A DNA stretch of 64,000 bases. Source: a virus (Duplodnaviria > Heunggongvirae > Uroviricota > Caudoviricetes). The stretch lies in the IMG/VR virus record IMGVR_UViG_3300020714_000006; one strand, 5' to 3'. Under the pieces are notes generated by a model, which was not told where the DNA came from, ran no database searches, and saw nothing but the letters and a program-made list of their open reading frames with translations. A program made the position numbers and the translations under genes. Shown one piece after another: positions 48,538 through 61,903 of the stretch (position 1 is the first letter of the stretch; each line of letters starts with the position of its first letter).

Positions 48538-48777
48538 ATGCCAATAGGTAAAACTTATACGTTATCCAATATATTCAAAGGACGAGAATATCACGTAGTA
48601 ACATATATTGGTAAAGAGTATTGGATGCCAGATGACCAACATACCTGGTGTACTGAACAATTTGGTAAAGCTGGCGATTTTACTAATATAGTGGCGTGTA
48701 GATGGTATCATCATGGTAACCGTTTTGGGTTTTTAAATGAAGCAGACCGTGATTGGTTTGTATTGAGGTGGTCATGA
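48538..48777 (+). CDS. WFxLRWS-family protein
   Basis: Ends DWFVLRWS. Confidence 0.75.
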   Translation: MPIGKTYTLSNIFKGREYHVVTYIGKEYWMPDDQHTWCTEQFGKAGDFTNIVACRWYHHGNRFGFLNEADRDWFVLRWS

Positions 48778-48974
48778 TTTATGAAGTTAAATGGATTGAT
48801 ATGCCAGAAAATGTAAGAGAAAATATATTTAAAGCAATATTACTTGATGAAATAGGAATAATTTCAAAACTTAAACTTGAATTGATGAAATATAATGGAA
48901 TGTATAGTGATAAAGGTACTATTGTATTTGCATCCGATGCACATTACAATTGGTTCATATTGCGGTGGTCATGA
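48774..48974 (+). CDS. WFxLRWS-family protein
   Basis: ATGA-coupled; NWFILRWS. Confidence 0.75.
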   Translation: MIYEVKWIDMPENVRENIFKAILLDEIGIISKLKLELMKYNGMYSDKGTIVFASDAHYNWFILRWS

Positions 48975-49168
48975 GAATTACCATAGATAAGCCTACGAGC
49001 ACATCTAAGTGGCGATGGGTATTAGTATGTCCTGGAATTTCAGATGATGAAATAGATGAAATAAATGAATGGCTTGATAATAGTGGCATTGAATATAGCA
49101 ATGTTACGGTAAGGTGGTGGATATCGAGAGAAGCTGATGTTAATTGGTTTGTTTTGAGGTGGTCATGA
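48971..49168 (+). CDS. WFxLRWS-family protein
   Basis: ATGA-coupled; NWFVLRWS. Confidence 0.75.
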   Translation: MRITIDKPTSTSKWRWVLVCPGISDDEIDEINEWLDNSGIEYSNVTVRWWISREADVNWFVLRWS

Positions 49169-49356
49169 AAACATTTTATATGGAAGATTTTCCAAGAGTA
49201 GTAGAGGCTGCTTCCAGTCTTGGTTATGCTGAATTTTTAAGAAGAGATGGATTTAAAACTACAGAATATATTGGTAATAAGTTTGAAGTTAGTTATTGTC
49301 CATCACATTGTATGAGTGAAGAAGAATATACTTGGTTTGTTTTGAGGTGGTCATGA
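49165..49356 (+). CDS. WFxLRWS-family protein
   Basis: ATGA-coupled; TWFVLRWS. Confidence 0.75.
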   Translation: MKTFYMEDFPRVVEAASSLGYAEFLRRDGFKTTEYIGNKFEVSYCPSHCMSEEEYTWFVLRWS

Positions 49357-49595
49357 AAGAACGTGAAATCAAATTAGGGGGTAGGTGGCATAGTTGTCCA
49401 CGTTGTTGGCAGAATTTTATTATAGCATTGGATTTCCATGATGATGAATCTGACATTCAGAGAGATAGTAAAATACGAAAAGAGTTATTAAAGTTTAATG
49501 CTAAAAGAATTGGTGATTTTAGAAGTGATGACGGTACAACAATACTATTTAAAACCCCAGTAGATAAGACTTGGTTTATATTGAGGTGGTCATGA
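49353..49595 (+). CDS. WFxLRWS-family protein
   Basis: ATGA-coupled; TWFILRWS. Confidence 0.75.
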   Translation: MKEREIKLGGRWHSCPRCWQNFIIALDFHDDESDIQRDSKIRKELLKFNAKRIGDFRSDDGTTILFKTPVDKTWFILRWS

Positions 49596-49792
49596 TAGAG
49601 ATGATAGGAATAATAGCTAGTGATGATCAGTATTCATATAGAATTGGGTTTAGTGATAGACCTAAAATTCCATTAGAAGTAAGGCAATGGTGTCGAGAAA
49701 ATTTTAATGAAGAACGATGCTATGTTGGAACATGGACTATTTGGTTTAAGACCTCTGCTGAGTTAAATTGGTTTATATTGAGGTGGTCATGA
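49592..49792 (+). CDS. WFxLRWS-family protein
   Basis: ATGA-coupled; NWFILRWS. Confidence 0.75.
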   Translation: MIEMIGIIASDDQYSYRIGFSDRPKIPLEVRQWCRENFNEERCYVGTWTIWFKTSAELNWFILRWS

Positions 49793-50001
49793 ATATACTA
49801 GAAATACCATTCTATACAGAATTGGATAAGAAGTTAGAAGAAATGTGGCGTCAAACTGAAGGCACTCCAGATGAATGGATTGATTTTATAAAAGAATTAG
49901 ATAAAAATATAATAGGTGTAGAAGATAGAGCACAGAAAATTACTACTATAACATTTAGTAAACCAGAACATATAACTTGGTTCTTATTGAGGTGGTCATG
50001 A
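49789..50001 (+). CDS. WFxLRWS-family protein
   Basis: ATGA-coupled; TWFLLRWS. Confidence 0.75.
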   Translation: MNILEIPFYTELDKKLEEMWRQTEGTPDEWIDFIKELDKNIIGVEDRAQKITTITFSKPEHITWFLLRWS

Positions 50002-50249
50002 TTGACAAAATTATATTAAAATGTTCTGGGGCACACCGTGATCCACGCAAGGGTGTAGATTATTATATAGTTTCTAGGAGTAATCATTTTTATTGGATGT
50101 ATGATGAACAGCACACCTGGTGTGTAGAAACATTTGGTGAGCGAGGTGATTTTTCATCTAGTGATATATGTAGATGGTATCATAATGGTTCTGTTTTTTA
50201 TTTTTTAAATGAAGAAGATTGTAATTGGTTTATATTGAGGTGGTCATGA
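49998..50249 (+). CDS. WFxLRWS-family protein, paralog of 48538
   Basis: Shares YWM.D.QHTWC.E.FG..GDF..CRWYH.G. Confidence 0.75.
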   Translation: MIDKIILKCSGAHRDPRKGVDYYIVSRSNHFYWMYDEQHTWCVETFGERGDFSSSDICRWYHNGSVFYFLNEEDCNWFILRWS

Positions 50250-50458
50250 TTGTATCGTGGAGTGATTTACCGTTATCTGTGCAAATGCATTTAGATGATA
50301 TCTCTGGATATACTAACACTAGTATTTTAACAAAAGAATGGATTAGTAATTTAAATGTGTGTTTGGAACCATTCACGGCAACATTTGATTTTGATGATGA
50401 TATTATTTACTTTGACAGTGAAGAATGTTATACTTGGTTTATATTGAGGTGGGCATGA
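50246..50458 (+). CDS. WFxLRWS-family protein
   Basis: Ends TWFILRWA. Confidence 0.75.
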   Translation: MIVSWSDLPLSVQMHLDDISGYTNTSILTKEWISNLNVCLEPFTATFDFDDDIIYFDSEECYTWFILRWA

Positions 50459-60052: not shown

Positions 60053-60276
60053 AAAATATTGATGTAATGATGTTTCCAAAGTTTGTAATGCACTGTAACC
60101 CTTTCTTTGAACAAGATGAAACCCTAACAATAACATATTGTGGGCGTAGTGGGATACGTGCATATCATATACTTATGCGTAAGTTTGGGTATAAATCTGC
60201 AGATATTGGTCCACCTGGTAAGAAATATCAATTGAGCGAGGAAGATTATACTTGGTTTATATTGAGGTGGTCATGA
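60049..60276 (+). CDS. WFxLRWS-family protein
   Basis: Ends TWFILRWS. Confidence 0.75.
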   Translation: MKNIDVMMFPKFVMHCNPFFEQDETLTITYCGRSGIRAYHILMRKFGYKSADIGPPGKKYQLSEEDYTWFILRWS

Positions 60277-60497
60277 AATTAAGGTTATCAGATAATAATG
60301 GCTTACACATATGGTGGTACAATTTTATTTACAGTTTAATAGTTCCTGATATGGAACCTCCCAAAGATAAAGATGAATTCCACAAACTAATTCAAGATGA
60401 GTTGGCACGCTATGGTGGATCAATGAAATTACCATATAAGGAAATAGAATTTAATGATGAAGCAAAAGCAATCTGGTTTATATTAAGATGGTCATGA
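60273..60497 (+). CDS. WFxLRWS-family protein, paralog of 59822
   Basis: HIWW.NFI..YGGSMKLPY.EIEF.DEAKA.WF. Confidence 0.75.
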   Translation: MKLRLSDNNGLHIWWYNFIYSLIVPDMEPPKDKDEFHKLIQDELARYGGSMKLPYKEIEFNDEAKAIWFILRWS

Positions 60498-60733
60498 AAG
60501 AAAATGAATTAGAATTAGTTGGTGGTTGGAAGATGCTACCACAATGTTGGAGAAACTTTGTATCAGAATTTCAGTCAATTAAATTGACTGCTGATGAGCG
60601 TGAATGTGCAATTAGGGATAAATTAGTAGAGTTTAATGCCACCAGAGAATATCATGCAAGAGGATGGGGGAACTCAACGCTAGTGTTTAATACTCCAGCA
60701 GATAAGACTTGGTTCTTATTGAGGTGGTCATAA
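60494..60733 (+). CDS. WFxLRWS-family protein, paralog of 49353
   Basis: P.CW.NF..FNA..F.TP.DKTWF. Confidence 0.75.
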   Translation: MKENELELVGGWKMLPQCWRNFVSEFQSIKLTADERECAIRDKLVEFNATREYHARGWGNSTLVFNTPADKTWFLLRWS

Positions 60734-60849
60734 TGGTCTTGACATTTGCAATATTAATATGTATAATACTTGGAATTGTTAGTGGTATTGGATGTTCAGT
60801 GTTAATTGGTATCATACCATGGTTACTTGAACTTAGGAAAAATAAATGA
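60733..60849 (+). CDS. 38-aa membrane peptide (not in the ORF track)
   Basis: Junction SD plus TAATG; hydrophobic MVLTFAILICIILGIV... Confidence 0.5.
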   Translation: MVLTFAILICIILGIVSGIGCSVLIGIIPWLLELRKNK

Positions 60850-60965
60850 TATTACAAATTTTAATGTGGGTTCTGATTGGGATTGCTATCTTTATGTCAT
60901 ATGGAATAGGTATATGGGCATACGACCAGATTGATATGTATTTTGAACGTAGGAGAAACAAATGA
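60846..60965 (+). CDS. 39-aa membrane peptide (not in the ORF track)
   Basis: ATGA-coupled at both ends; one hydrophobic helix. Confidence 0.55.
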   Translation: MILQILMWVLIGIAIFMSYGIGIWAYDQIDMYFERRRNK

Positions 60966-61489
60966 GTGAACCAAGAATATACCTAGATCTTGATGGCGTA
61001 TGTGCAGATTTTTTTACTGAATATGCCAAACTAGCTGGTATTGAGAGTGGTAACTACAGACACATACCACCAGCAAAATCTGACCCTACACTTCAATTAA
61101 TGGTGGGAACTGACTTCTTCGCTAGATTGCCTAAAACTGCAGTAGCAGATGAATTAGTAGAAATGGCAGTAAAATTATATGGTAGCTATTCTATATGTTC
61201 TAGTCCATTACGTGGTGACCATGAGAATAGTGAATACTGGAAAAATGTATGGATTAAAAACAATCTAAGAACACAACCCGAAGAAGTTATCATTACTACT
61301 AACAAAGCAAAATATGCTGTACAACAAGATGGCACTCCTAATATCTTAATAGATGATAGAGGTAATAACATCGATGCTTGGGAAAATGCAGGTGGTATTG
61401 GAATCAAATTTCAAGCAGATGAAGATTCTATTGATGTGGTTAAATTTGGGTTATTACGAGCAGCAATCCTTAGTAAATCGTATGCATAG
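60962..61489 (+). CDS. 5'(3')-deoxyribonucleotidase, HAD family
   Basis: IYLDLDGVCADF; KNVWI; ILIDDRGNN..W..AGGIGI. Confidence 0.85.
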   Translation: MSEPRIYLDLDGVCADFFTEYAKLAGIESGNYRHIPPAKSDPTLQLMVGTDFFARLPKTAVADELVEMAVKLYGSYSICSSPLRGDHENSEYWKNVWIKNNLRTQPEEVIITTNKAKYAVQQDGTPNILIDDRGNNIDAWENAGGIGIKFQADEDSIDVVKFGLLRAAILSKSYA

Positions 61490-61539
61490 AAATCCATAAA
61501 TAATATATGGTGGCTTAGACCCATCATATGGAGGTTATA

Positions 61540-61665
61540 ATGGATGAAGAGGTATTTACATGTATTATGTTGATTGTATTTGGGATATTAGTTATTGCAA
61601 TGACCCAACGTATAGTAAAAGCAGTATTTGAATTTTTTGGAATAAATGTCAACGATAAGAATTAA
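61540..61665 (+). CDS. 41-aa membrane peptide (not in the ORF track)
   Basis: GGAGG RBS; hydrophobic core. Confidence 0.55.
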   Translation: MDEEVFTCIMLIVFGILVIAMTQRIVKAVFEFFGINVNDKN

Positions 61666-61903
61666 ATATGGTACCGGAATTCCAGGTTGGGCGAATGCCT
61701 GGAATCACGCGGCAGAAAAGTTACCGTACATAGAACATGACGATGAAAACTATATTGATTATTTGTATGACCGGTTGATAAAAACTTATAAACAATTCGA
61801 ATACGAAAATCATTGCAAATTCACACCAGATTATCATGAAATCCATTACATAGAATTTGAAAGTGCAGCACATTATAACTGGTTCTTACTTAGGTGGTTA
61901 TAA
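61646..61903 (+). CDS. WFxLRWS-family protein
   Basis: Ends NWFLLRWL. Confidence 0.72.
   Translation: MSTIRIKYGTGIPGWANAWNHAAEKLPYIEHDDENYIDYLYDRLIKTYKQFEYENHCKFTPDYHEIHYIEFESAAHYNWFLLRWL

Follow-up and report, generated by a model that had tools for sequence, protein, structure and literature searches.

Promoter-early stem-loop (PeSL) cassettes have been described in the hyperplastic regions of T4-type phages (Arbiol et al., 2010, PMC2839356; Comeau et al., 2014, PMC4122927). In these regions small, non-essential early open reading frames (ORFs) are separated by copies of a short conserved regulatory sequence. It works as a homologous-recombination linker through which related phages gain, lose or exchange whole genes that are still expressed. 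No dedicated recombinase is known for the cassettes, which the authors themselves likened to integrons (PMC2839356). Here we describe an array with a comparable design in a 64,000-nt stretch of DNA from a virus of the Caudoviricetes (IMG/VR record IMGVR_UViG_3300020714_000006; the whole stretch is referred to as the window). Positions 48538-61903 hold 37 small genes, all on the + strand and with products of 61-114 amino acids (aa), which were identified from the ORF listing and motif scans. Nearly all products end in a tail of the WFxLRWS type, and the genes belong to a large, phage-only family without prior description. With a probability of about 0.68 for the explanation as a whole, we assign the locus to an uncultured jumbo myovirus from fresh water, a relative of the Rak2/GAP32/CBB group, and read it as an early-type operon of several blocks, in which the genes of one family are translationally coupled through a ~24-nt junction that also works as a recombination linker.

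By analogy, the PeSL cassettes are the closest known parallel to this array. The traits named above are shared, and end points of insertions, deletions and replacements that lie in the linker are found here too, among related phages. The linkers themselves are different. The PeSL linker consists of a sigma-70-like promoter and a GC-rich stem-loop terminator placed between the ORFs, whereas the junction described here comprises ~24 nt within coding sequence, has neither a promoter hexamer pair nor a hairpin, and encodes a protein C-terminus, a Shine-Dalgarno sequence (SD) and a start codon, by which it would act in translation and not in transcription. Only positions 48459-48512 show a hairpin-plus-promoter layout. 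Moreover, the cassettes of the array form one protein family whereas PeSL cassettes are unrelated ORFans, mini-circles belong to the PeSL system whereas the present locus is known from assembled contigs alone, and the phage group is here that of the Rak2/GAP32-like jumbo phages.

Translational coupling via ATGA (-4) overlaps, with an SD inside the upstream gene, is a textbook operon feature. The junction agrees with it in the stop/start overlap, in the GAGG placed 5 nt before the ATG within the upstream ORF, and in the codon choice of the upstream gene, which is shaped by the SD. It differs in that one junction is repeated more than 30 times at one locus and in hundreds of genes across phages, and in that it coincides with a conserved structural protein motif; the coupling is here predicted from sequence. 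Coupling and linker recombination are individually known ideas, and it is the package that is unusual: one ~24-nt sequence ends a protein, starts the translation of the next gene and marks the sites of whole-gene exchange. New in this locus are explicit transfers of single cassettes into an array, a control in which coupled tails are compared with uncoupled ones, a tail sequence that tracks the class of the protein body, two confident fold models, and a second, unrelated gene family in the same operon (a MORN-like array) that follows the same junction principle. In large phages it is the variable early regions that contain most of the unknown genes, and the construction of these regions is poorly understood. 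The value of the window lies in its size and its explicit exchange events, and its design is common to a family of at least 600 sequence clusters without an entry in the domain catalogues.

The junction TGG-TTY-NTN-TTG-AGG-TGG-TCA-TGA encodes W-F-x-L-R-W-S-stop. An ATG follows the GAGG at a distance of 5 nt and overlaps the TGA stop codon (ATGA), and the SD and start codon of each gene therefore sit within the last codons of the preceding one. At 48754-48777 (+), for example, TGGTTTGTATTGAGGTGGTCATGA spells WFVLRWS-stop with the same GAGG spacing and the same ATG/TGA overlap. The 15-nt core TTGAGGTGGTCATGA occurs 32 times at ≤2 mismatches, always on the + strand, compared to 0.18 occurrences in shuffled sequence; half of the copies (16/32) match it without a mismatch, and one copy is situated upstream, at 47043. 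The sequence-only reading of this DNA, made before the present analysis, had called the repeat multifunctional, and this is borne out in the sense of a protein tail, an SD and a start codon in one sequence.

The codons used in the tails indicate that the DNA of the junction, and not only the encoded motif, is conserved. In 13 large genes of the window, AGG makes up 3.3% of the Arg codons, TTG 13% of the Leu codons and TCA 33% of the Ser codons. Among the 32 tails that match the strict motif, AGG accounts for 25 of 29 Arg codons (∼86%; the other three tails have Lys), TTG is found at the Leu position in 23/32 and TCA at the last position in 23/32. The final residue is variable (S/A/L/V/T), yet its codon is nearly always NNA, and that A is the A of the ATG. 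NNA-TGA with an ATG is present in 25/32 tails, and two more have GTGA or TTGA. As a control we compared tails with and without a coupled downstream gene. GAGG was present in 26/33 coupled but 0/5 uncoupled tails of the window (Fisher p = 0.0016), and in 97/145 versus 4/20 when four related contigs were included (p = 1e-4); the pooled count of 237/281 versus 18/45 is inflated, as many loci were retrieved by the junction pattern itself. Because AGG, TTG and NNA are enriched, and because the GAGG spelling is absent from uncoupled tails that keep the protein motif, we conclude that selection acts on the nucleotides of the junction. The protein tail is probably under selection as well, since a C-terminal module of 13-21 aa aligns across all classes of the family.

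From this layout we propose the following mechanism. The TTG-AGG-TGG codons would provide the GAGG SD and NNA-TGA the stop-overlapping ATG, such that each gene passes the ribosome to the next. The same ~24 nt, being repeated at every boundary, could also work as a portable linker for homologous recombination. On rare occasions the junctions of one genome, or of two phages that infect the same cell, would cross over and so delete, duplicate, reorder or import whole cassettes, and a moved cassette would be in frame on arrival and already equipped with an SD and a start codon. This would be general recombination over evolutionary time, without a dedicated site-specific system. As the junction carries tail, SD and start codon, any cassette could enter any array and be expressed. 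That an inserted cassette would be expressed at once, as proposed earlier, fits this layout, in which it would inherit an SD and a start codon and pass them on. In support of linker recombination, the window encodes UvsX and a gp32-like protein. Of the UvsX/UvsY system that had been suggested to act on the repeat, UvsX is present; UvsY was not confirmed by Pfam, and the ORF adjoining uvsX at 5343-5798 gave no hit.

To follow the cassettes beyond the window we used the exact 24-nt junction; some 100 viral contigs of IMG/VR contributed at least 115 stretches that contain it. One related contig of 94 kb (G001) carries at least 60 family members within 20 kb of its start. Genes outside the family that the window has in common with G001 or another related contig, G004, are 67-76% identical at the nucleotide level. 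The 186-nt DxPK-type cassette at 50455-50640 (+), on the other hand, is 97.8-98.6% identical to cassettes in G001, G002 and G003, and among the compared contigs it has three different upstream and two different downstream neighbours. Its body differs from that in G002 at two positions, both nonsynonymous, which argues for a recent transfer rather than purifying selection. For the cassette at 50845-51060 (+), the counterpart in G004 shares 85% identity and is flanked by unrelated sequence on either side. In the alignments of such imported cassettes the identity begins at the ATG and stops at LRW, and both flanks are unrelated. Exactly two cassettes of G001 and G002 are missing from G003, and a shared tail of 40 nt marks the breakpoint. 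Between G001 and G002 the block is 96% identical, yet the order of two adjacent cassettes is exchanged (cross-diagonal match, 98.2%). Thus, breakpoints at the repeat, which the sequence-only reading expected from relatives, were found in a two-cassette deletion, a cassette swap and the boundaries of imported cassettes. The ends of high-scoring segment pairs (HSPs) are likewise enriched there: for HSPs of ≥85% identity at 113 loci, 69.5% of the ends lying ≤150 nt from a junction fall ≤25 nt from it, where a uniform distribution would give 17%, but the conserved junction may itself draw HSP ends toward it.

This last caution is one of several points that weigh against a linker. Additional loci were retrieved by the junction pattern, which biases some counts. 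Seven independent contigs of the same species (ENA and JGI, different samples), 99.5-100% identical to the window, have the same cassettes in the same order; no cassette is gained, lost or reordered among them, and exchange must therefore be rare. Cassette shuffling, as it had been put forward, is accordingly seen as whole-cassette differences bounded by the junction among relatives, while the order within the species is fixed and nothing integron-like is seen; order is conserved at short range and gives way to junction-bounded differences at longer range. The same-species contigs do vary, but in the longer-repeat MORN-like array at 52897-56503 and not in the cassettes. That array is the only part of the locus which varies among them: contig L116 has a 650-nt deletion between 112-nt repeats, and contigs L117 and L120 have a 69-nt insertion that equals one 23-aa repeat unit. 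This variation serves as an internal control, as it shows that the same-species data are able to reveal recombination and that it is found where the repeats are long. The homology common to all cassette classes amounts to only ~24 nt, which is short for efficient UvsX-type recombination; T4-type recombination can use homology patches of <50 bp (Singer et al., 1982, as cited in PMC2839356). Finally, the fold searches described below returned only generic split β-α-β matches and no function.

Could the array have arisen without any exchange? A purely vertical family, grown by tandem or segmental duplication followed by divergence, would need its junction for translation and folding only, and selection for SD and ATG would fully account for the conservation of the junction. 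The order is stable within the species, and related phages show adjacent tandem duplicates as well as collinear blocks; one block of six cassettes is largely collinear in three of them. The paralogs, too, are old. The earlier suggestion that close paralogs are scattered over the array, and that cassettes are consequently excised and reinserted, held for the pairs as such, which are real but distant (56, 44, 46, 58, 36 and 62% amino-acid identity). At these values the scatter says little on mechanism, and with adjacent duplicates occurring in relatives it is weak evidence. We also looked at segmental duplication as the cause of the scatter; O-E-W class patterns recur, but the offsets between paralog pairs differ (1460, 2095 and 1060 nt), in numbers too small for a test, and this candidate was set aside. 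What vertical descent does not provide for is a 186-nt cassette that is nearly identical between otherwise diverged lineages, has different neighbours and differs from its G002 counterpart by nonsynonymous changes only. The second cassette within unrelated flanks, the exact two-cassette deletion with its breakpoint overlap, the swap between near-identical contigs and the enrichment of HSP ends at junctions point in the same direction, and we regard a purely vertical origin as unlikely.

The resemblance to integrons (IntI, attI/attC, Pc) suggests the opposite extreme, an active system in which an unrecognised dedicated recombinase excises cassette circles and reinserts them at the junction in frequent, programmed shuffling. 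The array does share with integrons a row of putatively promoterless cassettes in one orientation behind a promoter-like site (48484), boundary repeats, and a cassette content that differs between relatives within limits set by the junction. The PeSL mini-circles of T4-type phages offer a precedent (PMC2839356), and many ORFs of the window have no known family. However, no IntI-type integrase was found and no attI site identified: a search for tyrosine recombinases (PF00589) gave nothing in G001-G004 (310 kb, fragments), while it matched 14/14 control genomes, and Pfam showed no recombinase domain among the window ORFs of ≥120 aa. The boundary repeat lies in coding sequence and, unlike attC, does not fold; when six junction contexts of 71 nt were folded as DNA, the energies ranged from -0.1 to -5.1 kcal/mol, with z-scores of -1.2 to +1.5 relative to shuffles and no shared hairpin. 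The cassettes are predicted to be linked translationally and not only transcriptionally, the seven same-species contigs give no sign of frequent rearrangement, and paralogs as old as those in the window leave no recent copy-and-move visible. The likeness to an integron was thus not upheld, and we hold such a system to be very unlikely. As regards assembly, the compared sequences are metagenome contigs, and contigs of co-occurring phages might have been misjoined at a short repeat that many phages of the same samples share. Logan contigs from four public runs, compared over 47000-62100, indeed show many joints at junctions, with sides no longer than the junction (21-26 nt); these come from other phages and are uninformative on rearrangement in this one. 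We find it hardly credible that misjoining produced the patterns described, since the key contexts recur in independent assemblies: the arrangement of the window is reproduced in all seven ENA and JGI assemblies, the contexts of the 98% cassette in G001 and G002 agree despite different samples, and the contig names imply final assembly k-mers (k141) longer than the repeat, which has 24-45 nt. We also considered a Chi-like hotspot, GGTGG being present within the junction, and dropped the idea, which depends on the Chi sequence of the host.

Recombination at a coupling junction remains our preferred reading, and the anatomy of the array can be described in its terms. Block 1 comprises 20 coupled cassettes at 48538-52900 (+), with starts at 48538, 48774, 48971, 49165, 49353, 49592, 49789, 49998, 50246 and 50455 in the first half and at 50637, 50845, 51057 (a GTG start), 51251, 51433, 51678, 51884, 52117, 52326 and 52556 in the second. 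Block 2 has six coupled cassettes at 56493-57864 (+), starting at 56493, 56792, 56977, 57213, 57413 and 57622; its final tail is not coupled to a following gene and is spelled ATA AGA TGG TCT TGA. Block 3 consists of 10 cassettes at 58373-60733 (+), with starts at 58373, 58591, 58851, 59099, 59308, 59580, 59822, 60049, 60273 and 60494. A lone member at 61646-61903 (+), downstream of two small membrane ORFs and an NT5C-like gene, ends in CTT AGG TGG TTA TAA and has no coupled gene. The array is interrupted by 11 genes of the unrelated MORN-like family (52897-56503) and by a small-RNA gene (57918-58070).

The 37 small genes with a shared tail were confirmed by the ORF and motif scans, and further copies lie outside the range first recognised, which brings the window to at least 38. 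One of them, at 47054-47323 (+), has the tail ...WFMLNWSSLF and receives its SD and ATG from a junction remnant without a gene body at 47034-47057 (+). An isolated member at 20669-20872 on the - strand has the protein tail WFLLKWS and no coupled downstream gene; its tail codons are TTA AAG TGG TCG TAA, with neither GAGG nor ATGA.

The near-zero spacing reported for the genes up to 57864 applies with two exceptions. Between 48538 and 57864 neighbouring genes abut or overlap by 4 nt, save for an 8-nt gap at 50837-50845 and the frameshifted member at 51433-51677. The uniform tail likewise stands for nearly all members. The member at 50637-50848 has lost its protein tail by a 1-nt deletion that leaves the SD and ATG for the following gene intact, and the member at 51433 is frameshifted about 18 codons in; both breaks are identical across the same-species contigs. 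Deviant tails were also seen (TMFVMKWS, WFLLRLV and SMLLLRWS), as well as tails extended by HLL or CN.

To characterize the protein family we built a profile from 36 aligned members, which at E≤1e-3 matched 607 clusters represented at 50% identity. Among the 150 best hits listed, nearly all are 44-158 aa long, with the match reaching the C-terminus and the motif at the extreme C-terminus. Pfam has no family for the typical members tested, its only match being the gp23-like N-terminus of the 52556 product. A PHROGs scan of 36 members yielded no informative family; two major-head-protein families and one marginal (E=0.01) unnamed family were matched by one member each, and the capsid matches are consistent with that same N-terminus. 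Literature searches found no paper on the WFxLRW family or its junction.

Clustering separated three main classes of protein body: 'EWC' (…EWCxxxFG…), which was grouped together with the type related to the 49789 gene, 'WxDxP / WWxNF', and 'DxPK'. A DxPK subtype had been singled out from the sequence, and its five genes do form one cluster. When the classes were compared by hhalign with their tails kept, all pairs matched with 96.6-99.0% probability, several of them through no more than the final 13-21 residues. Once the final 18 residues had been removed, EWC showed no detectable similarity to WxDxP or DxPK. The description of divergent bodies with a common end is therefore accurate at the sequence level. 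The sequence upstream of WF tracks the body class, with nEeDrNWF in EWC, SEAHY(T/N)WF in WxDxP and SEEEYTWF in DxPK. As the residues before WF are class-specific, only ~24 nt are common to all cassettes.

Structure prediction, which had been recommended for the family, was carried out with AlphaFold2 for one EWC-type and one DxPK-type member and gave confident models of small α/β domains. The EWC-type product of 52117 is predicted as β-α-β-β-α with a predicted local distance difference test (pLDDT) score of 85, and the DxPK-type product of 50455 as β-α-α-β-β-α with a pLDDT of 95. In both models the conserved tail forms the last strand and the C-terminal helix. Neither led to an informative fold match. 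Foldseek against the PDB returned nothing at E≤0.001, and a VIA-wide fold search gave a designed βαββα protein as its best match (Z 7.0), followed by ACT, RRM and EF-G domain III-like folds. In an Atlas fold search the EWC type hit unnamed viral clusters only and the DxPK type nothing clear. The matches represent a generic split β-α-β and do not point to a function. A homodimer prediction for an EWC-type member gave no verdict, at a score of 0.00.

One cassette carries a fragment of a capsid protein. Residues 4-36 of the product of 52556-52900 (+) match residues 95-127 of the T4 major capsid protein gp23 (Pfam Gp23, E=6e-8), and this gp23-like segment (window 52556-52663) is fused to a family body and tail. 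Comparable capsid-fragment cassettes are present in other phages (L129:5803-6282, P0016 and P0018). Residues 95-127 of gp23 presumably overlap the Gol region, the trigger of the Lit protease, and the cassette may act as a decoy against defences that sense the capsid.

Variable sets of small early or accessory proteins that differ between related phages are also seen in the internal-protein (IP) loci of T-even phages and in phage early hyperplastic regions. The proteins of IP-type loci are thought to serve host takeover or counter-defence. The family described here has no sequence or fold relationship to them, and it is defined by a C-terminal motif whereas IPs are targeted to the capsid by an N-terminal signal. 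Our tentative suggestion is that the cassette proteins may form a diversified early set for host interaction or counter-defence, a role we regard as possible and fitting to several features. The promoters are of early type, an Alt-like ADP-ribosyltransferase gene is adjacent, the family is phage-only and includes the gp23-segment subfamily, it is massively expanded with a quick turnover between lineages, and its members combine a conserved hydrophobic core with variable surfaces. If the proteins were host-takeover or counter-defence factors, the arrays would be a rich and easily mined source of them, and the linker model of modular phage evolution would find a natural test in them. A more speculative extension, in our view rather improbable, is that the junction is a selected 'universal adaptor' by which co-infecting freshwater jumbo phages trade mini-genes that are ready for expression, using recombination proteins of their own and possibly single-cassette circles, with the cassettes being fast-turnover decoys or binders of host defences and the gp23 Gol-region cassette one such decoy. 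Were this true, the array would be a translation-level, recombinase-free analogue of integrons.

Three related contigs share a six-cassette block, at L125:16945-18474, L128:9088-10599 and L131:7381-8477. Three of its members have the variant tail ...FILKFSEYL(E) in place of LRWS. To judge from these sequences, the protein tail can drift where the junction spelling differs.

Block 1 is headed by a terminator-like hairpin at 48459-48479 (+), directly followed by a sigma-70-like promoter at 48484-48512 (+), TTGACA-17-TAAGAT with TG. A promoter had been proposed at 48484, and the site is indeed promoter-like. Hairpin and promoter together resemble the PeSL layout and lie just downstream of an ART-PolyVal/GNAT gene. 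Blocks 2 and 3 are separated by an element at 57861-58365 that begins with a perfect TTGACA-17-TATAAT promoter at 57861-57889 (+), contains a Polynucleobacter-1 RNA (RF01718) at 57918-58070 (+), and is closed by a terminator-like hairpin at 58348-58365 (+). Another perfect consensus promoter follows Block 3 at 60739-60767. Inside the array promoter-like matches are not in excess (95, compared to 105.9 in shuffles). The match to the Polynucleobacter-1 RNA is full-length and scores 62.7 bits against an Rfam gathering score of 37. Its presence in a phage array may hint at a Polynucleobacter host, a freshwater genus, or at a phage origin of the RNA motif.

The 11 MORN-like genes at 52897-56503 (+) are built from a 23-aa repeat (HR-x-DGPA) and form a second coupled array, unrelated to the WFxLRW family. 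Their junction encodes ...IQFMNGKNIYA-stop, with ATGCCTGA as an 8-nt overlap of start and stop. Three tiny ORFs of 38, 39 and 45 aa at 60733-60965 and 61528-61665 are predicted to encode single-pass membrane peptides. They are located between the last block and the NT5C-like nucleotidase gene, partly behind the promoter at 60739-60767.

With regard to the phage itself, the window encodes UvsX (RecA domain), the gp32-like protein, a DnaB-like helicase, inteins and homing endonucleases. The UvsX is 62-68% identical to UvsX-like proteins of the jumbo myoviruses Vibrio phage 2.275.O, Sinorhizobium phage Phosso, Xanthomonas XbC2, Pectobacterium CBB and Cronobacter GAP32. Among GenBank phages, megablast found no match to the locus and tblastn none to one member. 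A word-indexed search with the protein of member 52117 found only itself, on 18 contigs of up to 334 kb. The public runs that contain the locus are all freshwater metagenomes from 2012-2023, with no RNA run listed. The family profile gave no hits in Vibrio 2.275.O, XbC2, GAP32 or Atu_ph07. In the cultured, 469-kb Sinorhizobium phage Phosso (PV764938.1) there are six weak hits to the profile, with E values of 4e-4 to 1e-2 (L137-L142). If these are real, Phosso is a cultured entry point to the family.

Two ART-PolyVal ADP-ribosyltransferase genes are present in the window, at 47357-48427 and 20221-20667. The former is fused to a GNAT acetyltransferase domain and lies directly upstream of the array. 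Selfish elements are dense at 2357-2830, 7067-9217, 11433-12191, 15942-17219 and 32896-33789, and consist of inteins (LAGLIDADG/Hint) that interrupt helicase genes and of free-standing HNH, GIY-YIG (SegE-like) and NUMOD3 endonuclease genes.

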